From an uncultured Alphaproteobacteria bacterium (lineage in GTDB: Bacteria > Pseudomonadota > Alphaproteobacteria > Caulobacterales > Aquidulcibacteraceae): 64,000 nt of DNA. Below, one piece after another: positions 8,426 to 54,593 of this stretch. The DNA is taken from assembly GCA_902826035.1 (NCBI GenBank), contig CADEDG010000001.1, positions 38,305 to 102,304 of the forward strand. Reading direction: 5' to 3'. The notes under the pieces were generated by a model. That model ran no database searches, was not told the DNA's origin, and worked only from the letters and a program-made list of their open reading frames with translations. A program made the translations under genes and the position numbers. How positions within the stretch are numbered: position 1 is the first letter of the stretch; each line of letters starts with the position of its first letter.

Positions 8426-8491
8426 CTTGTTCCCCTCAAAAGCGCGCCGCACGCGCGAGCGTTAGCCCACGCGTGCGACGTATTGGCCCGC

Positions 8492-8868: not shown

Positions 8869-8892
8869 ATACGCGCGCTTATAGCCAATCCC
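8869..8892 (-). promoter_or_regulatory. Putative ECF promoter upstream of cusF-2/DUF2231
   Basis: Minus strand (A)GGGATTGGCTATAAGCGCGCGTAT. Confidence 0.75.
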
Positions 8893-9633
8893 TCAACCGT
8901 CGGCGCCAGCGCTCGCCGCAGGCCCGCTTTTGCGCCGGCGCCCGCTTCCAAACCGGATGCGGTAGGGGATGAGCACGATGCCGGCGATCACCGACAGCAG
9001 CGTGATGGCGGTGACAGCGATGATGAGCGGGTGATTGAAGTCCTCATGATTTTGCCAATCCATGATGTGGAGCGCCCACAGAGTGTCGTAGAGCCGCCAC
9101 ATGTCGGAACGCCGCGCCGTGACCGCGCCGGTATTGGCCGCGACATAGACCGCCAACCCGCCATCAGCGAATTGCGCCCGCCAAGCCGGAAGGGCGCCTC
9201 GATATTCAGGGCTCTCGGCTTCGATGAGTTCGACACGTTCGGGAGCGTCGCCAAGTGTGACGTGCGCGCGCGCGATCGCCGTCGCGATCTCGGCGTCGAG
9301 CGGCGACACTTGCCGCAGCGTTGAAGCGTCCAAGAGCGCGGGCGCGCCATCGGCGAATTCGGCGACAATGACTTCGCCCATGACCGGGCGCGTCTCGATC
9401 GTGAGCTTGACCGGCGCACGGCCTTGCGCGTCGCGGATTTGCGCCAATGCGGCGGCGTTCGAAACAGTGAGCGTTCGCACTGTTTCAGCCGGGCGGATGA
9501 GATGTTCACTGCGAATTTGTTCGATCGGGATGATCGTGAAGACAAATCCGCTCACCACCCAAAAAACGATTTGCACCCCGACCAGCAGCGCCAGCCATTT
9601 GTGCACGAACGACGCCAAACGTGCGAGATTCAC
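8893..9633 (-). CDS. PepSY-associated TM-helix membrane protein
   Basis: HKWLALLVGVQIVFWVVSG and WRLYDTLWALHIMDW; common in cop clusters. Confidence 0.85.
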   Translation of the reverse strand: MNLARLASFVHKWLALLVGVQIVFWVVSGFVFTIIPIEQIRSEHLIRPAETVRTLTVSNAAALAQIRDAQGRAPVKLTIETRPVMGEVIVAEFADGAPALLDASTLRQVSPLDAEIATAIARAHVTLGDAPERVELIEAESPEYRGALPAWRAQFADGGLAVYVAANTGAVTARRSDMWRLYDTLWALHIMDWQNHEDFNHPLIIAVTAITLLSVIAGIVLIPYRIRFGSGRRRKSGPAASAGADG

Positions 9634-13034: not shown

Positions 13035-13058
13035 ATACGCGCCCTCCCGCGCGATCCC
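13035..13058 (-). promoter_or_regulatory. Putative ECF promoter upstream of copA(MCO)-copB
   Basis: Minus strand (A)GGGATCGCGCGGGAGGGCGCGTAT. Confidence 0.75.
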
Positions 13059-13092
13059 TCAGCGCGTACGCCTGAGACTGGCGCCAGGATGC

Positions 13093-13116
13093 GGGAAATC
13101 AGCAACTGGCGCGTAA
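13093..13116 (+). promoter_or_regulatory. Putative ECF promoter, divergent partner, upstream of 13147
   Basis: GGGAAATCAGCAACTGGCGCGTAA. Confidence 0.7.
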
Positions 13117-15398: not shown

Positions 15399-16139
15399 CT
15401 ACGCCTCGTCGAATTTCACCGCGCCCGTGATGGTGAGCGGGCTTGCGCCGAACATGCGCGCGCAGGTGCGCGAGAAGTGAGCCGAATCGGCAAAGCCGCC
15501 ATGATGTGCAGCTTCGGTGAGTGACAATCCCTGAGCGATGCCGGTGAAGGCGCGCCGGAGCTTCGACCAAAGCAGGAATGACCGGATCGGCACGCCGATC
15601 TCGTCGCGAAAAAGATGGGCAGCGCGCGATTGCGAGAGATTAAGGGTGCGAGCGAGTGCGCGCGCGTCAAGGGGAGCGTCGCTCTCGTGAAAGGCGCCAA
15701 GCGCTGCACCAATGCGGGCGTCGCGGGCCGGCGCTATCTCTGCGGCGCCCAACAAACCGGCTAGTCGCTCGGCTGGATCGGCGCCTTCATCAGCGATCGA
15801 GGTTTCGACGATGGCGGCCAGTTCTGCTGCTTGGGCCGGGGAAAGCACATTGATCCGATCGCCGATTGCACGAGCGATCCGCTGCCCGGATGTGCTGTCG
15901 GGATCGACGTAGAGAAAACTGCTGGGATAGGCCGCCGTTGCGCGATGAGAGACATTGGCGGGCGCTACAAATCCTTGGCCGTGATGTTCGCCGCTTGCGT
16001 CCACGAGCAGTGCGTGGGGGCCAGCAAATGCTTGAATTGCGTGGTGGCTATGAAAGCCATTGTCGCCCGCGGCGCCAAGGAATGCCGCCCACCACGGCCC
16101 GATGCGGGCTGCGCCCCGCCATTTGGCGACGCTATTCAT
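15399..16139 (-). CDS. AraC-family transcriptional regulator
   Basis: LSQSRAAHLFRDEIG and AAHHGGFADSAHFSRT double-HTH motifs. Confidence 0.92.
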   Translation of the reverse strand: MNSVAKWRGAARIGPWWAAFLGAAGDNGFHSHHAIQAFAGPHALLVDASGEHHGQGFVAPANVSHRATAAYPSSFLYVDPDSTSGQRIARAIGDRINVLSPAQAAELAAIVETSIADEGADPAERLAGLLGAAEIAPARDARIGAALGAFHESDAPLDARALARTLNLSQSRAAHLFRDEIGVPIRSFLLWSKLRRAFTGIAQGLSLTEAAHHGGFADSAHFSRTCARMFGASPLTITGAVKFDEA

Positions 16140-16692
16140 CGCGCAGCGCCCGTGCGAGAGCCAGTTTGGCGCGGTAAACGCGGGTTTCGACGGCTTTGGG
16201 TGTTAAGCTCAGCACGCGCGCGGCGTCGTGATGGCTCATCCCGCTGATCGCTGTCAGCAGCAAAGGTTCTTTCAGACCCGCGGGCAAGGCTGCAATCGCG
16301 GAATCGAGCCGGGTCAGATTGCGCTGCAAGGTCTCGTCGTCAGCGTCTGTCGCGGCGGCGATGTCTGGGGATGTCTGGATGCTCTCGGCGCCAAAGAAGA
16401 AGCGACGAACTGCGCGGCGACGCGCCCAGTCACGGCATTTATTGAGCGCGATCCGCTTGATCCATGCCGGAAATGGACGGTCCTTATCGTAGCGAGCAAG
16501 CGCAAGCCAGGCCGCAGCAAACGCCTCCTGGGTGAGGTCATAGGCTTCGTCGGCGTCGGCCACGTAGGAGCGCACGAACCGGTAAACCTTTTCCTTGTGA
16601 CGGCGCACCAGCAGAGAAAATGCCGCCTCCCGACCCCCGAGCGCCGCTGCCACGAGCGATGCGTCATCGCTTTCGGGCGAGGGGACGCTCAT
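16132..16692 (-). CDS. ECF sigma factor, CnrH-like (module 1)
   Basis: Sigma2 (EAYDLTQEAF, AWIKRIALNKCRDW) and sigma4 (VETRVYRAK); translationally coupled to the sensor gene. Confidence 0.9.
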   Translation of the reverse strand: MSVPSPESDDASLVAAALGGREAAFSLLVRRHKEKVYRFVRSYVADADEAYDLTQEAFAAAWLALARYDKDRPFPAWIKRIALNKCRDWARRRAVRRFFFGAESIQTSPDIAAATDADDETLQRNLTRLDSAIAALPAGLKEPLLLTAISGMSHHDAARVLSLTPKAVETRVYRAKLALARALRDE

Positions 16693-17126
16693 TGGGGCTC
16701 GGCGGTTAACGCCTCGACGACGGTATCGTCGAAGATCGCCTTCTGCTCATCGTTCAGGACCTCGCGCATCGCAAACATGTGAGCGATGGTTTCGGTCTGT
16801 AGCCGCCCCATCGCGTCATGAAATCGCTCAACCGCAGCCGCGACCCTTGGACCGTTCTCATGCTCTTCGCGGATGGCCGCGGCCAGCTCGGCGTTGGCGG
16901 AGCGCATTTCAAGTTCAAGCGCGTGCTTGCGGGCGGCGAACGCGCCTTCCAGCGTCTCGATTCTAGCGAGTTGATCGCCGCTTAGATCAAGGCGGTGATG
17001 CACGACATCGTGCATTGAGGGTGCAGGCCCCGGCGCCAGCGCCTTCATGCCTAACCAGACCCCGCCGAAACCTGCCGCCAAGGCCACCAACGCCGTCAGC
17101 AAGATGGCCCGACCCGAAAGTCTCAA
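16689..17126 (-). CDS. Periplasmic heavy-metal sensor, CnrX/NccX-like (module 1)
   Basis: One TM helix, then HDVVHH, FHDAMGRLQ and HMFAMREVL: the His/His/Glu/His/Met ligand pattern. Confidence 0.88.
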   Translation of the reverse strand: MRLSGRAILLTALVALAAGFGGVWLGMKALAPGPAPSMHDVVHHRLDLSGDQLARIETLEGAFAARKHALELEMRSANAELAAAIREEHENGPRVAAAVERFHDAMGRLQTETIAHMFAMREVLNDEQKAIFDDTVVEALTAEPQ

Positions 17127-17404
17127 CGATCATCCCCGAGCAAGGTCGAAGGCGCATAAGCGGCATGCACCGCAAAGGGCGAGAAATCGATCGCGGGGCG
17201 GGCCGCTGAGGCGCCGCCAGCAAAGGCGCCGAAGGTCAGCATTACTGCAGCTAGGGCCGCTTGCCAGCGCCAGGCGCGGGGCGGCCCGACGATCATGCGC
17301 GCGGCTTCAATTTGCTCCCAAACCTTCGGCTCCAACTGATCGAGCCTGCGGTCAAGCGGGCGTTCGCGAAGTGCAAGGAGCAATCGTTCAAGGTCGACGG
17401 TCAT
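17123..17404 (-). CDS. Anti-sigma factor, CnrY-like (module 1)
   Basis: LDQLEPKVWEQI, one TM helix, C-terminal FAVHAAYAPSTLLG; first gene of a Y-X-H order. Confidence 0.8.
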   Translation of the reverse strand: MTVDLERLLLALRERPLDRRLDQLEPKVWEQIEAARMIVGPPRAWRWQAALAAVMLTFGAFAGGASAARPAIDFSPFAVHAAYAPSTLLGDDR

Positions 17405-17430
17405 GGTTTCCAACTCTTGTTCCACCAGCA

Positions 17431-17454
17431 ATACGCACGAATACGCCGGAACCC
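17431..17454 (-). promoter_or_regulatory. Putative autoregulatory ECF promoter of the cnrY-X-H-like operon
   Basis: Minus strand (A)GGGTTCCGGCGTATTCGTGCGTAT. Confidence 0.8.
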
Positions 17455-17473
17455 TCAAGCGGCCTTCACTTGA

Positions 17474-17497
17474 GGGTTTTCGACCGGTGCTGCGTAG
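17474..17497 (+). promoter_or_regulatory. Putative ECF promoter upstream of MTase-DUF411-pyruvyltransferase
   Basis: (A)GGGTTTTCGACCGGTGCTGCGTAG. Confidence 0.7.
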
Positions 17498-17543
17498 CAA
17501 GAGGGAAGGGTGGAAAACCGCCCCGGGCGAGGGAGCGCAGCTT

Positions 17544-18254
17544 ATGGATCAACCGATTGCCGTTCAGCAGGCGTATTGGAACGACTGGAACGCGGCCAAG
17601 AACGAGCGCCCGCTTTCTGATATTTCCGCCGACCAGCGCGAGTTGGTGGTGCAGTGGCTTTCCCGGATCGGACGCACCGATCTCAAAATTTTGGAGGTCG
17701 GATGCGGGGCAGGCTGGCTCTGCCCGTCGCTAAAACCATTCGGTCATGTGACCGCCACCGACCTCTCCGAAGGCGTACTCCGCGAAGCCGCCGAGCGTGT
17801 GCCGGACGTCAAGTTCGTCGCCGGCGACTTCATGGAGCTCGACTTGGGGACCGGGGAGTACGATGTGATCGTCAGTCTCGAAGTCTTGTCGCATGTGGCC
17901 GATCACCCGGCCTTTATGGCAAAGCTCGCCAGTCTATTACGCCCCGGCGGCATGCTCATGCTGGCCACGCAAAACCGACCGGTGCTTGAACGCCACAACA
18001 ACGTGCCCCCGCCCGCGCCGGAACAATTGCGCAATTGGGTCGATCGCGATGAATTGAGGGCGTTGCTGATGCCGCACTTTGAGATACGTCAGCTTCGAAC
18101 TATTTCTGCCACGGCTAACAAGGGTTTTTATAGGCTCATTCTTGGGCGCAAAGCCAAGCGCGCTATGCGCGCGCTGTTTGGACGGAGTCTCGAAAACGCC
18201 ATGGCGCGCGCGGGCTTAGGCTGGACGCTGATCGCAATGGTGCAAAAGCGCTAA
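17544..18254 (+). CDS. Class I SAM-dependent methyltransferase (UbiG-like fold)
   Basis: ILEVGCGAG; SLEVLSHV; LRPGGMLML. Confidence 0.88.
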   Translation: MDQPIAVQQAYWNDWNAAKNERPLSDISADQRELVVQWLSRIGRTDLKILEVGCGAGWLCPSLKPFGHVTATDLSEGVLREAAERVPDVKFVAGDFMELDLGTGEYDVIVSLEVLSHVADHPAFMAKLASLLRPGGMLMLATQNRPVLERHNNVPPPAPEQLRNWVDRDELRALLMPHFEIRQLRTISATANKGFYRLILGRKAKRAMRALFGRSLENAMARAGLGWTLIAMVQKR

Positions 18255-18273
18255 CGAAGACAGGATAAGCAAC

Positions 18274-18741
18274 GTGAATCGTCGCCGACTTCTTTCCACC
18301 ACCGTTTTGTTGCTCGTTTCCGCCGTCACCCCCGGCTGCGCTCAAGAGGCGCAAGCGCTTGAGATGCAGGTGCGCCGCGACGCCGGTTGCGGCTGCTGTG
18401 AGGTGTGGACCCAGCAAATGGGTGCAAGCGGGCGCTTTCGCACGACACTCGTCAACGAGGCGGATATGAGCGCGCTGAAACGCCGCCTCGGCGTGCCCGA
18501 AGATCTGGCCTCGTGTCATACCGCGGAGGTCGCAGGCTTTGTGATCGAAGGTCACGTGCCCGCGCGTGAGATCATGCGCTTGCTTGCAGAACGTCCCGCG
18601 GGCGTGCGCGGGCTCGCCGTTGCGGGCATGCCCGCGGGCTCGCCGGGGATGGAAATGCCCGATGGGCGGCGCGACGCCTTCGATGTTGTCGCCTTTGGCG
18701 ATGGACGAAGCGTGTTTGCGAGTTACCCGGCGTCGGCCTGA
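18274..18741 (+). CDS. DUF411 (CopG-like) periplasmic metal-binding protein
   Basis: CGCC, SCHTA, IEGHVPA and GMPAGSPGME motifs. Confidence 0.92.
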   Translation: MNRRRLLSTTVLLLVSAVTPGCAQEAQALEMQVRRDAGCGCCEVWTQQMGASGRFRTTLVNEADMSALKRRLGVPEDLASCHTAEVAGFVIEGHVPAREIMRLLAERPAGVRGLAVAGMPAGSPGMEMPDGRRDAFDVVAFGDGRSVFASYPASA

Positions 18742-18751
18742 CGCGGCTACG

Positions 18752-19918
18752 ATGAGCTGGCGGCGGCGCATAATTATCCTTGGAACGTATGGCGGCGGCA
18801 ACTTTGGCAACGACGCTTGTTTCGAGGCGACGCTCGGGTGGCTGCGCGCCGCCTTCACCAACGCCTCGATTCTAGCCGTTTGCGCCGACCCCATGATCAC
18901 GTCGGAGCGCTTTGGAATTCCGGCGGTCAGTCTCAGAGTGTTTCCGCCGCTGCTGCCGCGTTGGCTCGATACGCTGCTACTGCGCCAGCCCAGCCTTTGG
19001 TTGAATTGGTGGGCATGTTTTGGAGCCCTGAAGCGCTGTGATCTGTTGGTTGTCGCGGGCGCGGGCATTATTCATGATTTCCGCGACCGCCCGTGGGGAT
19101 GGCCCAGCCGCTTCCTCCGTTGGATTCTTGCTGCGCGCCTGCAGGGCGCATCCGTTTGGTTTGCCTGCGTCGGTGCGGGCCCGGTTATCAATCCGGTCAG
19201 CCGATTGATGATGGTTTGGGCGGCGAAGCTCGCGACCAGGCGTTGCTATCGTGACGAAAGCTCTCGCGCCTACATGAGTGCGCGAGGAGTGGACGAAACC
19301 GCGAGCCAGGTTAGCGGCGACATCGCCTTCTTGCTGCCCGCCCCAACACCAAGCGATCACGGCGCCAGACAAATCGTCGTGGGCGTCGGGATCATGAACT
19401 ATCGAGGCTGGCGCACCAACGAAAAAATCTACCGCGCCTACATCGAAAGCATGGCCCATCTCATCGAATGGCTGAAATTCAAGGGACATAAGGTTCGTAT
19501 TCTGATCGGTCAGCGGCCAACCGATCTCATCGCCGTCGGTGATCTTGAAGCGCGCTTGGGCTATGCGTTGATGAGCGACGCAGAGCGTGAGGTCCGCTCC
19601 TATCAGGACATCTTGAATGTGGTCGCCGACACTGACCTGGTCGTAGCTTCGCGTTACCACGTGCAGATTGCGGCCCTCAAAATGGGCCGTCCCGTGCTTT
19701 CGATCAGTTACGGGCCGATGAACGATGACCTGATGCGCGCTGCAGGTCTTGGCGTCTTCATCCATGACATCGAGCACATGGATCATCGCGCGCTCATTTT
19801 ACAGTGCGACCAACTCATCAATATGCGCGTTCACTACGCAAAGGTCGTGCAAACGGAAATCAAGGCATTGGAGGCCGGGCTGCATGAGCGACTACGAGCC
19901 TTCATTTCACCTTCCTAG
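18752..19918 (+). CDS. Polysaccharide pyruvyl transferase family protein
   Basis: GTYGGGNFGND, GVGAGP-like CVGAGP, YRDESS and SRYHVQIAA. Confidence 0.82.
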   Translation: MSWRRRIIILGTYGGGNFGNDACFEATLGWLRAAFTNASILAVCADPMITSERFGIPAVSLRVFPPLLPRWLDTLLLRQPSLWLNWWACFGALKRCDLLVVAGAGIIHDFRDRPWGWPSRFLRWILAARLQGASVWFACVGAGPVINPVSRLMMVWAAKLATRRCYRDESSRAYMSARGVDETASQVSGDIAFLLPAPTPSDHGARQIVVGVGIMNYRGWRTNEKIYRAYIESMAHLIEWLKFKGHKVRILIGQRPTDLIAVGDLEARLGYALMSDAEREVRSYQDILNVVADTDLVVASRYHVQIAALKMGRPVLSISYGPMNDDLMRAAGLGVFIHDIEHMDHRALILQCDQLINMRVHYAKVVQTEIKALEAGLHERLRAFISPS

Positions 19919-20342
19919 CGCGGCCTGGCCGGCGCGCGACCTTGGCCGTGGTTTTCGGGGCGGCGAGATCATCAAGGATCGGACACTCGGGACGATCGTC
20001 GCCGTGGCAGGCATGGACGAGCCGCTTCAGCGTCCGCGACACCGTTCGCATTTCGGCCATGCGCGCCTCGATGTCGGCCAAGTGCTTTTCGGCAAGGCGG
20101 CGCACCTCGCGCGACGATCGGCGCCGGTTGCGCCAGAGCGCCACCAGAGAAGCGACCTCTTCAAGCGAAAAACCCATATCCCGGGTCCGCCGGACGAACT
20201 GGAGCATCGCAACTTCGTGGTCGCCATAGTCACGATAGCCATTGTCGCGGCGGCCGGCCGCTTCAATCAGGCCTATGCTCTCATAATAGCGGATCATCTT
20301 CGCCGATACGCCCGATTGCTCGGCGGCCATACTAATGTTCAT
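19902..20342 (-). CDS. cueR: Cu(I)-responsive MerR-family regulator CueR
   Basis: MNISMAAEQSGVSAKMIRYYE; CHGDDRPECPIL metal loop. Confidence 0.95.
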   Translation of the reverse strand: MNISMAAEQSGVSAKMIRYYESIGLIEAAGRRDNGYRDYGDHEVAMLQFVRRTRDMGFSLEEVASLVALWRNRRRSSREVRRLAEKHLADIEARMAEMRTVSRTLKRLVHACHGDDRPECPILDDLAAPKTTAKVARRPGRARKVK

Positions 20343-20369
20343 TCTGAATTCGCTCGTGAATTAATCCCA

Positions 20370-20400
20370 TTGACCTTCCCATTGTGGGAAGGTGCAGGCT
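20370..20400 (+). promoter_or_regulatory. CueR-type sigma70 promoter with operator
   Basis: -35 TTGACC (20370-20375), 19-bp spacer, -10 CAGGCT. Inverted repeat ACCTTCCCA-TTG-TGGGAAGGT at 20373-20393. Confidence 0.9.
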
Positions 20401-20445
20401 GCTTTTCAAGTCAAACCAGGAGCGCGAGCGCTCGCGTTATCAGCT

Positions 20446-22866
20446 ATGAACACTCACGACCACAGCCACGATCATAAGAGCCAAGCAGCCGCCGGTGGCG
20501 CGCCGCGCGATCCCGTCTGCGGCATGACGCCCAAGCCTGACACGCCGCACAGGCTCATGCACGCAGGCCAAGAGGTGCTGTTCTGCAGTGCTGGCTGCAA
20601 GGCCAAGTTCGAGGCTGATCCCGCGAAATATACCAGGTCCGCCGGCGAGCACGCTTGCTGCGCCAAGCCTGCCGCAGCAGATGAGGCCGGCTCATGCCAT
20701 GCGCACGGCCATGCGCCGCACGGCGCGCCGGCCGTCGATCCGATGACAGTTCCGGCCGGCTCGAAATGGACCTGCCCAATGCACCCCGAAATCGTCCGCG
20801 ATGGGCCGGGCTCATGCCCGATTTGCGGCATGGCGCTTGAGCCGATGATGCCCAGCGCCGACGCCGGACCCAATCCGGAACTGATCGACATGACGCGCCG
20901 CTTCTGGATCGGTGCGGCGCTCGCCTTGCCGGTGCTGGCGCTCGAAATGGGCCGCCACTTCCTTGGTATCGATGGCTTCGTGCCGCCGGCTTGGAACGGT
21001 TGGTTGCAGTTTGCGCTGGCGAGCCCTGTCGTCCTGTGGGGCGGCTGGCCGTTTTTCGAGCGCGGCTGGGCCTCGCTTCAAACCCGCCATCTCAACATGT
21101 TCACTTTGATTGCGCTGGGGACTGGCGTGGCGTGGTTTTACAGCGTCGTCGCGCTCTTTGCGCCGTCGCTCTTTCCGGCGGAGTTCCGAGACGCGCATGG
21201 TCTCGTTGCTGTCTACTTCGAGGCGGCCGCCGTGATCACGGTGCTGGTTCTGTTGGGTCAGGTGCTTGAGCTGCAAGCGCGCGAGCGCACCGGCGGGGCT
21301 ATTCGTGCGTTGCTTGATCTTGCGCCCAAAACGGCGCGGCGTCTGCGCGATGGCGTCGAAGAAGAAGTTCCGCTCGATCAGATCGTCGTGGGCGATCGCC
21401 TGCGCGTGCGTCCGGGTGAGAAAATTCCCGTCGACGCCATGGTGCTCGACGGTCGCTCCTCCATCGATGAATCCATGGTGACGGGCGAATCGATGCCGGT
21501 GACGCGGGAGGGCGGCGAGCGCGTCATCGGCGGGACCCTCAATCAGACAGGCGCATTGGTCATTGAAGCCGATCGCGTCGGCGCCGACACGATGCTCTCG
21601 CGCATCGTCCAGATGGTGGCTGAGGCCCAACGGTCGCGTGCTCCAATTCAGCGGTTGGCGGACAAGGTGTCGGGCTGGTTTGTGCCGGCCGTCATCGTGG
21701 TCGCCGTGATCGCCTTCTTGACCTGGTGGGCGTTTGGCCCATCGCCGGCGTTGTCCTACGGCCTGATCGCGGCGGTCTCGGTGCTGATCATTGCCTGCCC
21801 ATGTGCGCTGGGGCTCGCCACGCCTATGTCGATCATGCAGGGCGTGGGGCGCGGCGCGCGCGCGGGCGTCCTCATCAAGAACGCCGAAGCGTTGGAGCGG
21901 TTCGAGAAGGTTGATACGCTTGTGCTCGACAAGACCGGCACGCTGACCGAAGGCAAGCCGGCGGTGACCGCCATTCACACCGTCGGCGGCGGCGAATTGA
22001 ATGAGATGCTGCGCCTTGCCGCAAGCCTTGAGAATCGCAGCGAACATCCGCTCGGCTTGGCCATTGTAGCAGCAGCGCAAGCGCGTGGCGTTGGGCTTGT
22101 CGAGCCGACAGAATTCGACTCGCCCACTGGCAAGGGCGTCCTCGGCGTCGTTGAGGGGCGCATCATTGTGATCGGTGCGGAACGCTTTCTAGACGAACAG
22201 GGCATCGACGCGTCGGGCTTGAAGAGCGAAGCGGACGCCGCGCGACGCGACGGTGCAACTGCGATCTATGTCGCCATCGACGGTACGCTTTCAGGTCTCT
22301 TTGCGATCGCCGATCCGGTAAAGCCGACGACACTGGCGGCGCTTGAAGCCTTGCGGGCTCAAGGCATGCGGCTCGTCATGTTGACCGGCGACAACCGAAC
22401 CACGGCCGAGGCGGTGGCGCGCGGCCTTGGCATCGATGAGATCGAGGCCGAGGTGTTGCCGGAAGACAAGTCGCGCATTGTCGAGCGCCTTAAACGGGAG
22501 GGGCGCGTGGTGGCGATGGCGGGTGACGGGGTCAACGATGCGCCCGCTCTCGCCGCGGCCGACGTCGGCATCGCTATGGGCGGGGGTACGGATGTGGCGA
22601 TCGAGAGCGCAGGCGTTACGCTGTTGCGCGGCGACCTTGGCGGCATCGTCCGCGCCCGCATCATCTCGCGTGCGGTCATGCGCAACATCCGCCAAAACTT
22701 GTTCTTCGCGTTCGCCTACAACATCGCCGGCATTCCGATCGCCGCGGGCGTTCTCTATCCGATAACCGGGGCGCTGCTTTCGCCGATGATTGCGGCCATG
22801 GCGATGGCGTTGTCGTCCGTATCGGTTATCGCGAACTCTCTGCGCCTGGGCTCTTTGCGGGTCTGA
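20446..22866 (+). CDS. copA: Cu(I)-exporting P1B-1 ATPase with YHS domain
   Basis: DPVCGM..FCSAGC (YHS), WTCPMHP..CPICGM, CPC, DKTGTLT, YN and MALSS. Confidence 0.97.
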
Positions 22867-23025
22867 GGCCGGCTGAGCGGGAAGGGCGGCCCGCGTGGCC
22901 GTCCGTCCCGTCGGACTGAGTGTGGGAGTTGAGCCGCAACGCGCCCTGGCGCCTTGTGTCGCTACGCTCAAGAAAATTGTTCAAGGCGCTGTGGAATGTC
23001 CCCGATCTCTCGAAGCGTATCAATG

Positions 23026-23097
23026 CGAGCGCGCACAATCCGGAGCACGGGGCGTGCGGGAGGGGCCGGGGAAAATGATCCAAACTGGCGCGCTCAC
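23026..23097 (-). ncRNA. Candidate structured RNA, copy A (orphan, ECF promoter-driven)
   Basis: Starts 6 nt after GCGTAT; terminal stem GAGCGCGC/GCGCGCTC; internal GGATC and CCCCTCCC; homologous to 48370-48439 and 54377-54448. Confidence 0.5.
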
Positions 23098-23103
23098 TTA
23101 GAT

Positions 23104-23127
23104 ATACGCGCAGCGACCTCGAACCCC
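23104..23127 (-). promoter_or_regulatory. Putative ECF promoter with no downstream gene
   Basis: Minus strand GGGGTTCGAGGTCGCTGCGCGTAT. Confidence 0.65.
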
Positions 23128-23317
23128 GCACGCCGTGCACTGCGCGAGCTCCGACCATCGCGGCGTGTGCAAGGGTGTCAGGCGCGCTTCGTCATTCTGT
23201 GACGAATAGATTTGCCCTCGCTCGGGCGGGGTAGGCACAAATACTGCTTCAGGAAACGCACCGGACCTTACGTTCAGTTTGTGTGCCAACCATCCCGGAA
23301 ACTCGTTTAGAGGGCGT

Positions 23318-24538
23318 ATGTCGCGCGAGAATTATATCTTCACCAGCGAGAGCGTGTCAGAGGGCCACCCGGATAAGGTGGCCGACCGCATCTCCGACAC
23401 CGTCGTGGACGCGTTCATCGAGGCCGATCCCGAAGCCCGCGTCGCCTGCGAAACCATGGTCACCACTAACCGCATCATCCTCGCCGGTGAAGTGCGGGCC
23501 GGGAAGCCGGGCAATGACAAGGCCGCCAACAAGGCCTTCACTAAGGACATCATCGCGTCGCTGCAGCCGAAGGTCCGCACGGCGGTGAAGGACATCGGCT
23601 ACGAGCAAAAGGGCTTTCACTGGGAGAAGGCGCGCTTCGCCAACTATCTGCATGGCCAGTCGGCGCACATCGCCCAAGGCGTCGATGCGTCGGCGAAGAA
23701 GGATGAAGGCGCCGGCGACCAGGGCATCATGTTCGGCTACGCCTGCGAGGAAACGCCGGAGCTGATGCCGGCGACGCTGCAATACTCGCACAACATTTTG
23801 AAGCGTCTCGCCGAAGTGCGCCACAGCGGCGAACGCCCGGAACTAGAGCCGGACGCGAAAAGCCAAGTCACGCTACGTTACGAAAACGGCAAGCCCGTCG
23901 AGGTCGTCGCCATCGTCGTCAGCCACCAGCACAAGAAAAAACTGGGCGAGAAGAGCTACAGCCAGTCGCGCTTTGCCGAACTCGTAAAGCCGATCGCCGC
24001 TTCGGTTTTCCCTGAGGGGCTCATCACCAAGAAAACCAAGTGGCACATCAACCCAACCGGCAAGTTCGAGATCGGCGGCCCGGATGGCGATAGTGGTTTG
24101 ACCGGCCGCAAGATCATCGTCGACACTTACGGCGGCGCAGCCCCGCACGGCGGCGGCGCATTCTCTGGCAAAGACCCAACGAAGGTGGACCGCTCTGCCG
24201 CTTATGCCTGCCGCTATCTGGCGAAGAACGTTGTCGCCGCCGGCCTTGCACAGCGCTGCACCATTCAGATCAGCTACGCGATCGGCGTCGCTGTGCCGAC
24301 CAGCTTCTACGTCGATCTCCATGGCGCCGACACGATTGATCCCGCGATTCTCGAAGCGAAATTGCCAGAGTTGATCGGCGGCGCGACTCCACGTTCGATC
24401 CGCAACCATCTGAAGCTCAATCGCCCGATCTATGCGCGCACCGCCGCCTACGGCCATTTCGGCCGTCTGCCCGACAATGAAGGCGGCTTCACTTGGGAAA
24501 ACCTGGATCTCGCCGCTGAGTTGCGGCGCCTTCGCTAA
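23318..24538 (+). CDS. metK: S-adenosylmethionine synthetase
   Basis: [32 protein letters not shown] and GGGAFSGKD. Confidence 0.98.
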
Positions 24539-24666
24539 TCGCTTTTGCTCCTTGCTGCGGGCGTTGGCCGGGCGGAACGCTGCCGCCAACCGGTCCAGCC
24601 GCCCCGCAGCCCTTGGCTTCCGCTCGGTTAGCCGCAAAAGTGTCCTCGGAAGAGGCGATCAATCCC

Positions 24667-25245
24667 ATGGCTGCGGACCCAAGCGACTTGCCAGAAGCTG
24701 ATGTGCGGCGCGCACTTGAAGAGGGGCTCGACAAGATCCGTGCCTACCTCCGCTCCAGGCTGGGCGATCCAAATCATGCCGACGAAGTGCTGCAGGCTTT
24801 TTGCGCCCGGGCCTTGGAACGAGCCAGCGATCTGAAAGAGGGCGGCGCGGCGCGTTCCTGGTTGTCGCGCGTACTGGCGACCGCCATCGCCGATCACTAT
24901 CGCGGCCTCGCCCGGCGACGGGCGCGCGAAGCGCCAGCCGAGGAGCTGAGCTCTCTCGCAGCCGAGACAGAAGCGGACAGCGCTGCTTGCGCGTGTTTGC
25001 TGGCGCTCCTGGATGCTCTTGCCGCAAAGGATGCGGCGCTCATTAGAAACATCGATCTCGAGGGCCGAGATCGGACGAGTGTCGCCGCGAATCTGGGTTT
25101 GACCTTAAATGCGCTGACCGTCCGCTTACACCGCGCGCGGGCGCGGCTAAGAGAGCTGGTGCTGCGACTCTGCGCCGTGTGCGTCATCCACGGCTTTGGC
25201 GAGTGCGAATGTCCGCCGCCCAACCCGGCGAGTGCGGAACACTGA
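24667..25245 (+). CDS. ECF sigma factor with CxC linker and C-terminal Cys-rich domain (CorE/SigZ-like)
   Basis: Sigma2 and sigma4 (LTVRLHRARARL); linker CAC; tail CAVCVIHGFGECEC; no adjacent co-oriented anti-sigma. Confidence 0.85.
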   Translation: MAADPSDLPEADVRRALEEGLDKIRAYLRSRLGDPNHADEVLQAFCARALERASDLKEGGAARSWLSRVLATAIADHYRGLARRRAREAPAEELSSLAAETEADSAACACLLALLDALAAKDAALIRNIDLEGRDRTSVAANLGLTLNALTVRLHRARARLRELVLRLCAVCVIHGFGECECPPPNPASAEH

Positions 25246-25541
25246 TAGGCAAGCGCCAAACGACACCGTTTTTGTCTGTCCCCCTGAGGTCGGCGAAAGG
25301 CCACAAAATGGGCGAGCGGGGGCGCCCAATCGGTCGTGGAGGGGGCTGCCTGTAATAATTGCGCCGCCGCAGCGTCCTTTCCTTCAAAGGGCGCTCCAAG
25401 AATGAACCAGGCTTTCCGGTGAAGATGCAGTCTTACGAAAGCACGGGTGTGGGCCATTCTTCCGCGCCAGCTTCATCGAACCCCATGCGCGTCGATCGCC
25501 ATTCTTGGTTTCCTTCGCATCGCGAAAGCGGCGGCCTCCGC

Positions 25542-25988
25542 TCATTCTTCGTCCACGCCGCGCAACAATTCTTCACGCACGATCATGTCGAACCGCGCCT
25601 GTTGATCGGCATTGAGCACAGCACGCATTTCGAAGACGTGCGCGATAGCGTCTCTTTGGGTTTGGCCCATGGCGTTGTGAAACCGATCAATCGCTTGGCT
25701 GAGGCGCTCACTCTGGGCGTGATCCTCGACCACGGCGGCGGCGATATCCCGCGCGGCCGCGCGCAGCTCGGCGTCAAGGGCCGCTTGGCGCAATGCGTAA
25801 CCGGCTTCGATCGCTTCCAGACGCCGGTCCTGTTCGGGCGTCAGATCAAGTTCGCGATGAACCGCGGCGTCGAGCGTGTCCCGATGGGTGTCGGAACGTG
25901 TGAGAATTGTCCCGACAAACACGCCCCCCAGCCCGGAGCCGAGCCCCACGAGTGCTGCGAGCGCCAGCAGCTTCCAGGTTTTCAACAT
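25542..25988 (-). CDS. Periplasmic heavy-metal sensor, CnrX-like (module 2)
   Basis: AAVHRELDL, FHNAMGQTQ and HVFEMRAVL; paralog of 16689..17126. Confidence 0.88.
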   Translation of the reverse strand: MLKTWKLLALAALVGLGSGLGGVFVGTILTRSDTHRDTLDAAVHRELDLTPEQDRRLEAIEAGYALRQAALDAELRAAARDIAAAVVEDHAQSERLSQAIDRFHNAMGQTQRDAIAHVFEMRAVLNADQQARFDMIVREELLRGVDEE

Positions 25989-25991
25989 GAC

Positions 25992-26237
25992 TTATCGGCC
26001 GAGGGCAGTGGCGGGCGCATAGGGCTGATCGAGCGCAAACGGTCCAACATCGACCGTAGCCGACGCGGCGGCCGTCGATACGCCAACGGCGGAACTGACC
26101 ATCAGGACGAGGGCGCAGACCCCGGCGACCGCGCCGTTGGCGCCAGCGCCGGCGCGGTGTCGCGCGCGCGCGTCAATACGAGCCCAGACATCGCTTTCCA
26201 GTCCGTCCAATGCTGTGTCGATGTCCACCCGGCCCAA
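25992..26237 (-). CDS. Anti-sigma factor, CnrY-like (module 2); start may be GTG 26228
   Basis: LDGLESDVWARI, TM helix, FALDQPYAPATALG; paralog of 17123..17404. Confidence 0.78.
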   Translation of the reverse strand: MGRVDIDTALDGLESDVWARIDARARHRAGAGANGAVAGVCALVLMVSSAVGVSTAAASATVDVGPFALDQPYAPATALGR

Positions 26238-26295
26238 GGCTGCGAGTTGGCGATCAAGGTCGGTCAGGGAAGCCTCCGGGCGATCACGCTCTTCT

Positions 26296-26319
26296 ATACG
26301 CGCGCGGCGAGGCGCGCCC
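26296..26319 (-). promoter_or_regulatory. Putative ECF promoter of the module-2 Y-X operon
   Basis: Minus strand (AG)GGGCGCGCCTCGCCGCGCGCGTAT. Confidence 0.72.
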
Positions 26320-26467
26320 CTGGAACAGCTAGCCCATCGCGCTGCGGCAGATCAAGAATGAGACGCTCAAGACGCACTTGCAGGAGGTTGATCCAAAGCA
26401 AAGCACGGGTTCAGGTTAGGCGCGACCTTGTCATGGGGTCCCGGTTTTGGCGGCCTGCGAGGCGACC

Positions 26468-27103
26468 ATGAAACGCATGACGGCTCAGGCTTTGGTGCAG
26501 TCGGGGCAGGCCCGCTCGCCGCTGCGACGCGTCGCCTTCACCGGCGGGTTCGATGATCTGATTGCAGGCGCCCGGAGCGGCGATCGGGCGGCATTCAGCA
26601 CGCTGATGAGAAGCCACAAAGACGATCTGTTTCGCTTCGTGCGCCGGCGCGTCGCCAACGCCGACGCGGCAAGCGATATCGTTCAAGAAGCCTTCGTGGC
26701 AGCCTGGAGCGCGATGGCAAACTTCGATCCGGAGCGCTCGTTCAAGACCTGGCTGCACGCCATCGCGTTGAACAAGTGCCGTGACGCGGCGCGCCGCGCC
26801 GCGACCCGCCGAGCTTTCTGGGGCGACTGTCCCGACGGCGACGATTTGCGCGTCGCCGATGAGCGGCCATCGCCCGAAGCGGAGACAGTGAGCCGCGATG
26901 AGTTGCGAATGCTGCGCGGGGCGCTGGCGACCTTGCCGGAGCATCTGCGCGAGGCGCTGATGCTGACCGCCGTCGATGGTCTCTCGCAAGCAGCCGCCAG
27001 CGCGACCCTTGGATGCTCGGTCAAATCGCTTGAATATCGCGTCCACCGGGCGCGTGAATTGCTCACAGCCGAGATGGAACGCAGCGCCATGCCGCGCCGC
27101 TAG
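26468..27103 (+). CDS. ECF sigma factor, CnrH-like (module 2)
   Basis: AASDIVQEAF, TWLHAIALNKCRDA and LEYRVHRAR; divergent from its Y-X pair. Confidence 0.88.
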   Translation: MKRMTAQALVQSGQARSPLRRVAFTGGFDDLIAGARSGDRAAFSTLMRSHKDDLFRFVRRRVANADAASDIVQEAFVAAWSAMANFDPERSFKTWLHAIALNKCRDAARRAATRRAFWGDCPDGDDLRVADERPSPEAETVSRDELRMLRGALATLPEHLREALMLTAVDGLSQAAASATLGCSVKSLEYRVHRARELLTAEMERSAMPRR

Positions 27104-28299: not shown

Positions 28300-28315
28300 G
28301 CTGAGGCCTCTGTCA

Positions 28316-28339
28316 GGGCGTGGACCCTGGCGTGCGTAT
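28316..28339 (+). promoter_or_regulatory. Putative ECF promoter of the phosphoketolase operon
   Basis: (A)GGGCGTGGACCCTGGCGTGCGTAT. Confidence 0.75.
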
Positions 28340-28392: not shown

Positions 28393-30765
28393 GTGCCAGC
28401 TTCACCGGACGATCTGTGGCGAGATGGCTATGGCGTGATCCGCCACCGGCCGGAAACCGTCGAGAGAATAGAAAATCTCGTCGCGCGGCACTGGACGGAG
28501 GGCGCGCTCGCCGATCGAAACGCGGCGCTCGCCCTGTGCGCCGCCGCCGATCGCCTCGCCAACGCCGCGATGTGGGTCGTGGCGCACATGAGCTATGCCA
28601 CCCGTGTCGATGTGAGCGGCGCCGAACTCCCGGCTGAGGTGTTCAAGGGCCAACCCGAGGGACACGTGGGCGGCTCGCTCAACGCCGCGATCGCCTTTGT
28701 CGGCTATCATCTGGCCAATGCGCTGAGCGGAAAGACGCGCGCCTGGATCTTAGGGCAGGGCCATTGCGTGGCCGCGATCGAAGCGGTCAACGCGCTCTTG
28801 GAGGATGTCTCTCCCGCTCAACAGGGGCGGTACGGGCGCAGCGAAGCTGGCCTCTCGCGGCTCGCGGCCGACTTCTATTCCTATGCGTTGACGTCAGATG
28901 GGCGCCCAGCGGCGCCGCTCGGCAGTCACGTCAATCCGCACACTGCAGGCGGCGTCTCCGAAGGCGGTTATCTGGGTTTTGCCGAAACCCAATACGTTCA
29001 CATGCCTTTGCCGGGTGAGCGCTTGGTCGCGTTCTTGAGCGACGGGGCGTTCGAAGAACAGCGTGGCTCCGACTGGTCGCCGCGTTGGTGGCGCGCCGAA
29101 GACAGCGGCTTTGTTGTGCCCGTCATGATCCTCAATGGCAGGCGCATCGAGCAGCGCACCGAAATCGGCCAGGAGGGGGGCGCGGAGTGGCTCGCTCAGC
29201 ATCTGCGGTTAAGCGGTTTTGATCCCATCATCATCGACGGTCACGATCCGCTTGCCTACGCCTGGGCCATCATCGAAGCCGAATCTGCGCTCACGCATTT
29301 CACGTCCATGTCGGAGCGGGCTTATCCAGCGCGGCTTCCCTATGTGATCGCGCGCTGCGTCAAGGGCTATGGCTTTCCGGGGGCGGGCACAAATCGCGCG
29401 CACAATTTGCCGCTTGCCGGAAATCCGCGCGCCGACGCCCAGGCGCGACGGCAATTCAATGAAGGCGCACGCGCGCTCTTTGTGCCGAAAGTCGAACTCG
29501 ATGCGGCGGCGCAGGCGTTTGCTGTGCACGATGCGCAAGAGCGGCCGCGCGAAAGCCGCCATCCACTGGCAATGAGGTCTATCCCGTCGCCGGTCTTGCC
29601 TGAGCCGGCTTGGGCGCCCGAGGGGGGCGCAAGCTGCGCCATGGAGGCGCTCGACGCACTTTTTGTTGAGATCGTCAAAGCCAATCCGAATCTACGCGTG
29701 CGCGTTGGCAACCCAGACGAGTTGAAAAGCAATCATATGGGCGCAACGCTCGACTTGTTGCGCCACCGCGTAAATGCGCCCGAACCGGGCGCGCCGGAAG
29801 CCGTGGACGGCGCCGTCATTACTGCGCTCAATGAGGAAGCGGTCATTGGTGCGGCGCTCGGCAACAAAGGCGGGCTCAATCTCGCGGTGAGCTACGAAGC
29901 CTTCGCCATGAAAATGCTGGGGGCGCTGCGCCAAGACATCATCTTTGCCCGCCGCCAGCGCGAGATCGGCGCGCCGCCGCGTTGGCTGTCGGTGGCGCTC
30001 ATCGCTACGTCACACACCTGGGAAAACGCTAAGAACGAACAATCGCACCAGGATCCGACCTTGCCCGAGGCGCTGCTGGGTGAAATGGCGGATACCGCGC
30101 GCGTGCTTTTTCCGATCGACGCCAATTCCGCGGCGGCCGCACTTCGCAGTGTCTATGCCTCGCACGGTCAGATCGCCTGTCTCATTACGCCCAAACGCGC
30201 TGTGGCTCGCCTCCTCAGCGGGGCGCGCGCCGAACAAGCCGTGGCTGACGGCGCAGCGCATCTCCTGGGCGACCCCAGAGAGGCTGACCTCCAGTTCGTC
30301 GCGATTGGCGCCTATCAAACAGCGGAAGCCCTACGTGCGAGCGAACGCTTAATGGCGCGTGGCCGTTCAGCATGCGTCACCGCGCTTGTGGAGCCCGCCC
30401 GCTTTCGCGCCGGGCGCGACGACATCGAAACGGCCTATGCCGCGAGTGAGGCGCAGCGCAGACATTTCTTCCCGGACGAGACGCCGCGCGTTTTTCTCAC
30501 CCATACTCGCCCTGAGCCTATGCTTGGGGCTTTGCGCCGGCTCGGCGCCGGACCTTCGCGCACGAGCGCGCTTGGCTTCATCAATCGGGGCGGCACACTC
30601 GACGTATTCGGTATGCTGTTCGCCAATCGCTCAACCTGGGCGCATGCGCTTGAGGCCGCAGCTCGCATCCTCGGCTGTGGTCGCGAGGAGTTTTTGTCGG
30701 AGGTCGAAATGACCGCACTCGACGGGCGCGGCGACCCCAGTGTTCTGCGCGCTCCGTCTCAATAG
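28393..30765 (+). CDS. Divergent phosphoketolase (Xfp-like, ThDP-dependent)
   Basis: 790 aa; GQGHC, SHVNPHTAG, GGYLG, SDGAFE..LNG ThDP motif, KGYG..HNLP, NPDELKSN and NEQSHQDP. Confidence 0.82.
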   Translation: MPASPDDLWRDGYGVIRHRPETVERIENLVARHWTEGALADRNAALALCAAADRLANAAMWVVAHMSYATRVDVSGAELPAEVFKGQPEGHVGGSLNAAIAFVGYHLANALSGKTRAWILGQGHCVAAIEAVNALLEDVSPAQQGRYGRSEAGLSRLAADFYSYALTSDGRPAAPLGSHVNPHTAGGVSEGGYLGFAETQYVHMPLPGERLVAFLSDGAFEEQRGSDWSPRWWRAEDSGFVVPVMILNGRRIEQRTEIGQEGGAEWLAQHLRLSGFDPIIIDGHDPLAYAWAIIEAESALTHFTSMSERAYPARLPYVIARCVKGYGFPGAGTNRAHNLPLAGNPRADAQARRQFNEGARALFVPKVELDAAAQAFAVHDAQERPRESRHPLAMRSIPSPVLPEPAWAPEGGASCAMEALDALFVEIVKANPNLRVRVGNPDELKSNHMGATLDLLRHRVNAPEPGAPEAVDGAVITALNEEAVIGAALGNKGGLNLAVSYEAFAMKMLGALRQDIIFARRQREIGAPPRWLSVALIATSHTWENAKNEQSHQDPTLPEALLGEMADTARVLFPIDANSAAAALRSVYASHGQIACLITPKRAVARLLSGARAEQAVADGAAHLLGDPREADLQFVAIGAYQTAEALRASERLMARGRSACVTALVEPARFRAGRDDIETAYAASEAQRRHFFPDETPRVFLTHTRPEPMLGALRRLGAGPSRTSALGFINRGGTLDVFGMLFANRSTWAHALEAAARILGCGREEFLSEVEMTALDGRGDPSVLRAPSQ

Positions 30766-30780
30766 AAAGAAGCCAACGAC

Positions 30781-37533: not shown

Positions 37534-37557
37534 ATACGCGGCCGCTGCGGCGATCCC
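37534..37557 (-). promoter_or_regulatory. Putative ECF promoter upstream of the frameshifted gene and BI-1
   Basis: Minus strand (A)GGGATCGCCGCAGCGGCCGCGTAT. Confidence 0.75.
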
Positions 37558-37583
37558 TGGAGCAGCTTGTTTTAGGGTAGATC

Positions 37584-39098: not shown

Positions 39099-39123
39099 AT
39101 ACGTGGGCGGGCCGCTCACGCCC
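39099..39123 (-). promoter_or_regulatory. Putative ECF promoter (spacer +1, -10 ACGTAT)
   Basis: Minus strand (A)GGGCGTGAGCGGCCCGCCCACGTAT. Confidence 0.55.
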
Positions 39124-39232
39124 TGGGAAAAATCGCGCGCTTCAGAAAGATGCGCGATCATACCTATGGCGGCGCGGCGAGATTGGCGCAGACGCGCTGC
39201 GGATCGGCCTCTGTCGCTTTGGCGGCAGCGGC

Positions 39233-41656: not shown

Positions 41657-41680
41657 ATACGCACGCTCGCCCGCTCTCCC
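41657..41680 (-). promoter_or_regulatory. Putative ECF promoter of the HdeD-lipoprotein-ATP-grasp operon
   Basis: Minus strand GGGAGAGCGGGCGAGCGTGCGTAT. Confidence 0.72.
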
Positions 41681-41791
41681 GCAAAGAAAAACTCCAGAAG
41701 CGAGATTTAGCGACGTCTCGATAGAGGCGCGCTTGACAAGGCAGGGGCGCGGCTTCGATGTCGTTTGCGTCGGCCGGCGAGAGGAGTGTCC

Positions 41792-48445: not shown

Positions 48446-48469
48446 ATACGCGGCCCGAGGCGGGTTCCC
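48446..48469 (-). promoter_or_regulatory. Putative ECF promoter of the DUF2933-ICMT-HlyD-rbbA-yhhJ operon
   Basis: Minus strand (A)GGGAACCCGCCTCGGGCCGCGTAT. Confidence 0.78.
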
Positions 48470-48508
48470 TGAAGCTGATCGCAACGGCGCCTTTGGCAAA
48501 GCCGTCCA

Positions 48509-48532
48509 GGGCGAGCGCCGTCAGGCGCGTAT
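48509..48532 (+). promoter_or_regulatory. Putative ECF promoter of the DUF5676-GAPDH-ATPase operon
   Basis: (A)GGGCGAGCGCCGTCAGGCGCGTAT. Confidence 0.78.
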
Positions 48533-52922: not shown

Positions 52923-52946
52923 ATACGCACCGGCGCGCTCTTGCCC
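52923..52946 (-). promoter_or_regulatory. Putative ECF promoter of the 52876 lipoprotein
   Basis: Minus strand (A)GGGCAAGAGCGCGCCGGTGCGTAT. Confidence 0.75.
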
Positions 52947-52977
52947 TGAACCCGCACTTTCGCCCGGCGCTCATCCA

Positions 52978-53001
52978 GGGCGAATGCCGCGTGGCGCGTA
53001 A
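52978..53001 (+). promoter_or_regulatory. Putative ECF promoter of cfa
   Basis: (A)GGGCGAATGCCGCGTGGCGCGTAA. Confidence 0.72.
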
Positions 53002-54454: not shown

Positions 54455-54478
54455 ATACGCACGAGCCCAGCGGTCCCC
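54455..54478 (-). promoter_or_regulatory. Putative ECF promoter with no credible downstream gene
   Basis: Minus strand (A)GGGGACCGCTGGGCTCGTGCGTAT. Confidence 0.7.
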
Positions 54479-54593
54479 TCACGGATCGAGCCGCCAAGCC
54501 AAGGTGTGGGAGGTTGCAACTGAATCGTTGTGAGCAGGTCGAGGCGAAGCCGCAATTCGACGCGCCACACGGTGGCTCGTTGGGAGCATATCG

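Follow-up and report, generated by a model that had tools for sequence, protein, structure and literature searches.

Extracytoplasmic function (ECF) sigma factors are prized in signalling research and in synthetic biology for the fact that paralogues can be insulated from one another; to our knowledge, the minimal change that suffices for such insulation in nature has rarely been documented. A 64,000-nucleotide stretch of DNA from an uncultured alphaproteobacterium (assembly GCA_902826035.1), hereafter called the window, carries two modules resembling CnrYXH, a system that responds to Ni(II) and Co(II), only 9 kb apart, and it raises the question of whether the two sigma factors share one set of promoters or address separate ones. 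The window covers C1:38305-102304, which is about 2% of a 3.14-Mb assembly with a completeness of 96%, and the closest public relatives of this assembly are metagenome-assembled genomes labelled Terricaulis, Hyphomonadaceae or Caulobacterales. In each module, X would act as a periplasmic sensor, Y as a small single-pass partner that holds the sigma factor, and H as the ECF sigma factor itself. The original prediction for this DNA proposed that two sensors of different metal preference feed a single promoter class and act as an OR gate. The comparative analysis described here suggests instead that the modules are probably two parallel circuits with separate promoter dialects and separate gene sets, an arrangement that we find more likely than the OR gate.

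Both modules are genuine CnrYXH-type systems, and they belong to two deep clades within that family. The gene coordinates and strands agree with the layouts first described, a Y-X-H operon for module 1 and a Y-X pair divergent from its sigma gene for module 2. In module 1, Y1 (17123..17404), X1 (16689..17126) and H1 (16132..16692) all lie on the minus strand and overlap one another, while in module 2 the genes Y2 (25992..26267) and X2 (25542..25988) are on the minus strand and H2 (26468..27103) is on the plus strand. Purifying selection acts on all six genes, with ratios of nonsynonymous to synonymous substitution rates (dN/dS) of 0.06-0.24; the value for Y1 is approximately 0.23 and that for X1 is 0.06. 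Both sigma factors consist of regions 2 and 4 only (Sigma70_r2 and r4_2 domains in each), and their top solved relative is CnrH (PDB 4cxf), which matches H1 at 3e-33 (the next match being 5e-18) and H2 at 8e-30, a lead of 10-15 orders of magnitude over any other sigma factor. The best solved relatives of the sensors are CnrX and NccX, at 1e-14 for X1 and 2e-11 for X2, and PF13801 is found above its gathering score in both (4e-16 in X1, 3e-11 in X2), each sensor having a hydrophobic segment at residues 7-25 as an N-terminal membrane anchor.

The Y proteins are less easily placed. Y1 (93 amino acids, hydrophobic segment at residues 49-67) and Y2 (91 amino acids, with this segment at residues 45-63) are homologues (E 2e-13), and each is encoded immediately before its X gene. 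Their size and topology are those of CnrY, with approximately 95 amino acids, a cytoplasmic N-terminus of about 45 amino acids, one helix and a short periplasmic tail, and the CnrY helix aligns at 45-63. A BLASTP comparison with CnrY yielded an alignment for Y1 (E 9.7) but none for Y2, a profile of 15 Y sequences compared with CnrY by hhalign reached a probability of 4%, over the membrane segment only, and neither protein has a Pfam, NCBIfam or PDB match. Membership of Y1 and Y2 in the CnrY family was rejected, as no similarity appeared in the PDB search, in BLASTP or in the profile comparison, and because of this lack of detectable similarity we count the Y proteins as CnrY-like in their working only.

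Both Y genes are preceded by a common motif. Upstream of Y1-X1-H1 it reads TGAGGG-N15-GCGTAT (17431..17457, minus strand), and upstream of Y2-X2 it reads CCAGGG-N16-GCGTAT (26296..26323, minus strand), with a spacer of 15 in relatives. The motif lies 30-60 nt before Y in approximately 45 related loci whose spacers are unrelated, and TGAGGG/CGAGGG-N15-GCGTAW precedes Y in about 30 loci related to module 1. Across the genome, TGAGGG and GCGTAW were paired 7 times at a spacer of 15, compared to 6 times over 25 other spacer lengths (~0.24 each), and YCAGGG and GCGTAW were paired 6 times, compared to 24 times over 25 other lengths (~1 each). By this spacer control, the shared motif first noticed before both Y genes stands far above chance. 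The same architecture, GGG-N15/16-CGTAT, is present in the pMOL28 promoters cnrYp (CAAGGGGGAG...CCGTATAAG) and cnrCp (CGAGGGGAAG...CCGTATAGA). Experiments have established their -10 element, CCGTATA, as well as a start of transcription that lies 23 bp before cnrY (PMC13492112), and this start falls 8-9 nt after CCGTAT in the present coordinates. Other versions of the motif, GTTCC/CGTAT and TGAAGG/CGTAT, were rejected after comparison of relatives. On this comparative evidence, the motif is a real CnrH-type promoter.

The orientation of this promoter bears on a published motif. The ECF291 consensus quoted from ECF Hub in Table 4 of PMC13492112 has a -35 element of ATACGC and a -10 element of CCCTCA. 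These are the exact reverse complements of GCGTAT and TGAGGG, and the promoter found here agrees with the orientation of cnrYp and cnrCp. It seems, then, that ECF Hub lists the ECF291 motif in inverted form, a probable result of how often promoters of this family diverge or lie back-to-back, and the inversion may be the reason that the 2026 transcription-start study failed to find the motif at cnrYp.

Within this single architecture, the promoters of the window fall into two dialects, which differ at the second base of the -35 element, G versus C, and are alike in -10 box, spacing and GGG core. The G dialect, found at the Y1 promoter and about nine others, reads YG[A/C]GGG-N15-GCGTAW, and the C dialect, found at the Y2 promoter and about nine others, reads YC[A/G]GGG-N15/16-GCGTAW. 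With one-mismatch and N16 sites included, the G class contains ten sites (3365+, 6070-, 8895-, 13061-, 13090+, 17457-, 17471+, 23130-, 41683- and 54481-) and the C class another ten (26323-, 28313+, 35622-, 36331-, 37560-, 39126-, 48472-, 48506+, 52949- and 52975+). Strict YCAGGG-N15/16-GCGTAW occurs 7 times in the genome, each time in the window between 26323 and 52975. A neutral scan with NNNGGG-N15-GCGTAW found 55 matches in the genome, 18 of them in the 2% that the window represents; nine of these 18 carried G at position 2, eight carried C, and the last was the Y2 site, read one base off. A chance origin of the C-class sites was rejected, given that all seven strict matches are in the window, lie before genes and are conserved in relatives.

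The distribution of the dialects bears on whether there are two circuits or one. If both sigma factors read one promoter class, with G or C being neutral or merely tuning promoter strength, either sensor would switch the whole island, and the -10 box GCGTAT, the spacing of 15-16 nt and the GGG core that the dialects share are consistent with this. So is pMOL28, whose promoters show CnrH tolerating both CAAGGG and CGAGGG. The arrangement of the sites argues the other way, in that every divergent promoter pair in the window is of a single class and not one gene has both dialects. Orthologous sites in four related genomes (G017, G019, G029 and G033) retain their class while the spacers drift, and this holds at about ten unrelated promoters for each dialect. 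Furthermore, strict C-class sites follow the presence of module 2 across the genus: 45 were found in the 7 genomes with a module-2 sensor (3-9 each) versus 19 in 34 other genomes (0-3 each), or 6.4 versus 0.56 per genome, which is an approximately 11-fold enrichment.

The sigma factors themselves offer a candidate for the residue that reads the dialect. The sigma-4 recognition helix is KAVETRVYRAK in H1 and KSLEYRVHRAR in H2. Region 4 of H2 aligns residue for residue with that of E. coli sigmaE, with Tyr at S172 and His at F175; R176 is conserved in both H1 and H2, and the position equivalent to 172 is Thr in H1. In the structure of sigmaE with its -35 element (PDB 2H27), S172 bonds the base at -34, which is the second base of the -35 element, and among ECF sigma factors Ser or Thr at this position correlates with G or A at -34 (Lane and Darst 2006, PMC1540707). 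When the -10 boxes are aligned, the second base of the -35 hexamer described here corresponds approximately to -34. In all 16 of the loci with a divergent sigma gene, the Y promoter is C-class, the sensor has Asp and the helix reads K-x-x-E-Y-R-V-H/F-R, and the approximately 30 operon-type loci combine a [T/C/G]GAGGG promoter with Thr, Val, Met, Leu or Ser at the 172-equivalent. This is the only sigma-4 residue that is fixed differently between the clades, and it is the one that reads the base in sigmaE. We infer from these alignments that the 172-equivalent discriminates the dialects, so that Tyr in H2 and Thr, Val, Met, Leu or Ser in module-1-type sigma factors would insulate the two circuits. 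The likeness to sigmaE has its bounds: Thr or Tyr stands at 172 and not Ser, the -35 elements are YGAGGG and YCAGGG versus GGAACTT in sigmaE, and the contact in the present sigma factors is read from the alignment.

Several points weigh against two separate circuits. The sigma factors with the divergent layout form a single clade, supported at 100/100 and sitting on a long branch, from which it follows that this layout, the Tyr and the C dialect have one common origin; across the sigma clades they are therefore a single evolutionary event, and only the many unlinked promoters and the co-occurrence within the genus count as independent support. YCAGGG sites also adjoin module-1-type loci in four genomes without module 2 (G001, G002, G004 and G026), an observation that favours the OR gate as well. 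Since such sites exist, few as they are, the G/C rule is not absolute for every clade, and some module-1-type sigma factors may tolerate C, or another sigma factor may be involved. The common -10 box, spacing and GGG core make cross-recognition physically plausible. The anti-sigma role of Y is presumed from gene position, size and topology, with no similarity to CnrY, and copper as the inducer of module 1 is deduced from its target genes. What the comparison shows is the identity of the genes, the enrichment of the motif and the split of the dialects with its conservation and co-distribution; the specificity of the sigma factors, the metals that induce each module, and the contacts of Y with H and of X with Y are inferred.

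Taken together, the dialects track the sigma clade, the genes of the island, the presence of module 2 and the Tyr residue, and the single promoter class of the original prediction is not supported. By this comparison of promoters and proteins, the two sigma factors would recognise different promoters, which is one of the outcomes that the original prediction named as counting against itself, and the OR gate is unlikely. What endures from it, in spirit, is the pair of sensors with differing chemistry, as Asp or His is fixed by clade (see below) and the gene sets behind the modules differ.

The wiring of module 2 also sets it apart. The gene for Y2 was correctly recognised, but its start, first placed at the TTG at 26237, must be moved upstream. 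The frame is open upstream of this TTG, and the additional residues LTDLDRQLAAL align to the N-terminus of Y1. A CTG at 26267, 30 nt upstream of the TTG and 5 nt after GGAGG, is conserved in at least 13 related loci, and three deeper relatives have GTG at the same place. Stop codons immediately precede the CTG in L035 and L048, and the TTG is replaced by CTC in L052-L055. On these grounds, Y2 extends from 25992 to 26267 and has 91 amino acids. Before H2, no ECF motif was found on the plus strand of 26268-26467, in agreement with the first description; the best score there with a position weight matrix was -12.7, a score equalled or exceeded by about 96% of random 200-nt windows of the genome, versus 16-24 for real sites. 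H2 is therefore probably made from a promoter of another kind, and a TTGATC box at 26388..26393 (plus strand), 80 nt upstream of the H2 start, is a candidate -35 element of another promoter type; in an alignment of 12 intergenic regions, TTGATC or TTGACC was kept in all 12 loci. Scans round both modules with E. coli-type consensus sequences for sigma-70 promoters and terminators returned nothing. With an ECF promoter before Y2-X2 and none before H2, module 2 would differ from module 1 and from cnr in that its feedback is negative and its sigma gene is not positively autoregulated. H2 and its orthologues also have an N-terminal extension of about 25 amino acids (26468-26545) that H1 and CnrH lack. 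It may be, speculatively, that the weak CTG start of Y2 and this extension tune the feedback.

These same features could be read as loss of function. The conserved N-terminus of Y2 lacks ATG, GTG or TTG, its sigma gene lacks an ECF promoter and autoregulation, and the sensor has an altered ligand, so that module 2 might be a decaying or silent duplicate; G017 does hold a truncated orphan copy of Y2-X2. That copy (L037/L042, contig C16, LNEK01000016) consists of an X2 gene and a Y2 gene missing its N-terminal half, with no sigma gene nearby, and it looks like a decayed module-2 duplicate. For module 2 of the window, decay is highly improbable. The dN/dS values are 0.11-0.24 for Y2 and 0.07-0.12 for X2, with a range of 0.07-0.24 across Y2, X2 and H2; the CTG is kept together with its Shine-Dalgarno sequence, GGAGG, in at least 13 loci, with GTG in the deeper relatives; the Asp ligand is fixed clade-wide down to 49% identity; and a regulon of about ten promoters in the C dialect is maintained in several genomes.

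The sensors differ in a defined way. The reference ligands of CnrX are His42, His46, Glu63, His119 and Met123, and all five are kept in X1, as His39, His43, Glu60, His116 and Met120. The set in X2 is Asp40, His44, Glu61, His117 and Met121, in which Asp40 replaces CnrX His42 and the other four ligands are kept. The difference pointed out earlier between HDVVHH in X1 and DAAVHR in X2 thus maps to His42 and is clade-wide. Asp was fixed at this position in all module-2-type sensors checked (8 genomic loci and about 30 protein clusters) and His returned below 49% identity, while His was kept in 27 of 27 module-1-type sensors. The module-2 sensor clade is small: in a collection of 5.8 billion proteins it amounts to about 30 clusters (90% identity), and these go by no other names than 'periplasmic heavy metal sensor' or 'Spy/CpxP family'; no NCBIfam model exists for X or Y. 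A search of PLSDB plasmids for module-2-type sigma factors found none, all matches being below 46% identity and module-1-type. The basal locus L062 combines an Asp sensor with the operon layout and GGAGGG, and for this reason the change of ligand is not tied to the change of promoter. In both sensor clades, an additional invariant His and a near-invariant Met occur in a motif RFHxAMG, 13 residues before the His119-equivalent (RFHDAMG at residues 101-107 of X1, RFHNAMG at residues 102-108 of X2), where CnrX and NccX have VERAA. These residues could form an additional metal site.

The genes behind the G-class promoters give module 1 its probable function. H1 would activate its own operon from TGAGGG-N15-GCGTAT, and the operon has a fourth member, an AraC-family regulator with an HTH_18 domain (15399..16139, minus strand): its start codon overlaps the H1 stop (GATGAATAG) and the gene immediately follows H1 in six Terricaulis genomes, from which we derive the operon Y-X-H-AraC. 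The regulator may be the start of a regulatory cascade. Back-to-back with the Y1 promoter is a promoter reading TGAGGG-N15-GCGTAG (17471..17497, plus strand) for a methyltransferase (17544-18254) and a DUF411 protein (18274-18741). The promoter at 13035..13061 (minus strand) precedes the multicopper oxidase gene copA (11176-12999) and copB (10019-11179) and is kept in G009, G019 and G029, and the one at 13090..13116 (plus strand, TGCGGG-N15-GCGTAA) precedes a gene for a DUF4440/SnoaL protein (13147-13629). A further promoter (8869..8895, minus strand), kept in G009, G017, G019 and G029, serves genes for a CusF-like protein (8492-8824) and a DUF2231 membrane protein (7739-8452). These targets make it most likely that module 1 is a periplasmic switch responding to copper, of a type that is common among sphingomonad plasmids. 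Its regulon extends beyond the island, given three G-class sites outside the window on contig C155 of G000 (1058-, 1930- and 2508+), which precede a paralogue of the 17544-18254 methyltransferase, with a TGAGGG promoter, and a PepSY-TM protein. The G-class site at 23104-23130 (minus strand, TGCGGG-N15-GCGTAT) lies between the copper ATPase and metK genes. It reads into the 3' end of the ATPase gene and may be either a promoter of antisense transcription or a match by chance.

H2 would act on about ten C-class promoters between 26 and 53 kb of the window, Y2-X2 alone of its own module being fed back from YCAGGG-N15/16-GCGTAT. The promoter at 28313..28339 (plus strand) precedes a cassette encoding phosphoketolase, beta-CASP, nucleoside phosphorylase-like and phosphoribosyl pyrophosphate synthetase-like proteins (28393-34540) and is kept in G017, G019, G029, G033 and L040-L049. 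That at 37534..37560 (minus strand) is upstream of a gene for a Bax1-I family (BI-1) membrane protein (36475-37263) and kept in G033, and that at 39099..39126 (minus strand), reading CCAGGG-N16-ACGTAT with GCGTAT in relatives, precedes an open reading frame of 105 amino acids (38713-39030). A divergent pair follows, with 48446..48472 (minus strand) before genes for a DUF2933 protein (48064-48339) and an ICMT-like methyltransferase (47391-48134) and with 48506..48532 (plus strand) before those for a small membrane protein (48591-48881), a type II GAPDH-like protein and a CPD-motif P1B ATPase (49928-52210). The membrane motif of this ATPase (plus strand) reads ACPDALGLATP, and in its N-terminal part an HMA-like domain without CxxC is followed by a linker rich in His and Met. 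Another pair, kept in G017 and G019, comprises 52923..52949 (minus strand) before a His/Met-rich lipoprotein gene (52592-52876) and 52975..53001 (plus strand) before cfa, which encodes cyclopropane-fatty-acyl-phospholipid synthase (53065-54330). By gene order, the listed sites precede genes in the correct orientation. Beside either module, no motif sites were found directly before an RND operon, and no control of an adjacent metal efflux operon of the cnrCBAT type is seen.

Two G-class promoters lie in module-2 territory, and they bear on whether the circuits are fully insulated. One (41657..41683, minus strand, TGCGGG) precedes a DUF308/HdeD-like operon. The other (54455..54481, minus strand), kept in G017, G019 and G029, would drive a candidate structured RNA at 54376-54446 (minus strand), a GC-rich stem-loop of 71 nt that begins about 9 nt after the -10 box, has a minimum free energy of -42.2 kcal/mol (z -4.25) and is convergent with cfa. 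The stem-loop is near-invariant in four genomes, including G017, G019 and G029, while its flanks vary, and it has no family in an Rfam search; by these features, it is a candidate sigma-dependent small RNA and could link the two circuits. Together with the AraC-family gene cotranscribed with H1 and the dialect exceptions in genomes without H2, such promoters would fit partial or one-way cross-talk, in which, for example, H1 weakly reads both dialects or indirect links through AraC or the RNA make the modules a hierarchy and not insulated channels. The candidate RNA belongs to no known family, and we regard this explanation as doubtful and retain parallel circuits as the better account. A more specific version of the parallel circuits is that the derived branch, with its Asp sensor, its sigma gene free of autoregulation and its anti-sigma factor started at CTG, has been recruited to run an envelope and metabolic 'back-up' regulon (phosphoketolase and nucleotide salvage, a spare GAPDH with the CPD-motif ATPase, cfa and BI-1) and not an efflux pump, with the circuits cross-linked by the H1-dependent small RNA convergent with cfa; this we offer tentatively, as a possibility that is less probable than not.

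The region of 16132-27103 is part of a metal island. Other genes of the island are those for CueR, which scores above the NCBIfam cut-off, and for a copper ATPase of the CPC type, along with metK and a gene for a Cys-rich ECF sigma factor. This third ECF-type sigma gene (24613-25245, plus strand) is convergent with X2. Its product has a Cys-rich C-terminal tail (CAVCVIHGFGECEC), its top NCBIfam matches are SigZ-like and under the cut-off, and it shows a likeness to CorE-type sigma factors, which sense metals directly.

How do these modules compare with known systems? Group ECF291, formerly within ECF20, is defined by an anti-sigma factor similar to CnrY at position -2 and a sensor of heavy metals at -1, both sharing an operon with the sigma gene (PMC7826278). 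Module 1 has this Y-X-H order and module 2 does not, H2 being divergent in every one of the 16 loci in its clade. CnrYXH of Cupriavidus metallidurans CH34 (pMOL28) and NccYXH have the same three-part design as both modules, with a PF13801 sensor, a single-pass partner and an ECF sigma factor. The positive sigma autoregulation of CnrYXH would be retained in module 1, where the motif precedes Y1-X1-H1, and absent from module 2, where none precedes H2. Unlike CnrYXH, neither module has a cnrCBA-type pump as an obvious target, module 1 being associated with copper genes and module 2 with a mix of envelope, metabolic and ATPase genes. Unlike CnrX, both present sensor clades have the invariant extra His of RFHxAMG, and unlike cnr, module 2 has Asp for His42, a divergent sigma gene without autoregulation and C at the second -35 base.

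The closest counterpart of module 1 is on plasmid pDE1 of Sphingobium baderi, where the same Y-X-H operon is followed immediately by copA-copB and divergent from copCD, with TGAGGG-, CGAGGG- or CAAGGG-N15-GCGTAT before each and the TGAGGG/CGAGGG forms noted before Y, copA-copB and copCD. Because pDE1 has the same operon, the same motifs and copA-copB/copCD, module 1 represents a copper-linked type common in Alphaproteobacteria. The pDE1 genes carry no annotation beyond 'periplasmic heavy metal sensor' and 'RNA polymerase sigma factor', and a literature search of limited scope found no experimental paper on the copper-linked Y-X-H type and none on copper-linked or Asp-variant CnrX systems. Module 1 is thus a widespread copper-linked type that is unpublished as far as we found, and module 2 a rare variant of the CnrYXH kind. 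Unlike pDE1, the window has copA-copB 3 kb away and not directly after the sigma gene, and an AraC-family gene is appended to the operon. The two CnrH-type systems of the window seem to be kept apart by a single base of the promoter and a single residue in sigma-4 while sharing the same -10 box, and the CnrYXH design would reach both copper genes, in module 1, and non-efflux targets under a different feedback layout, in module 2.

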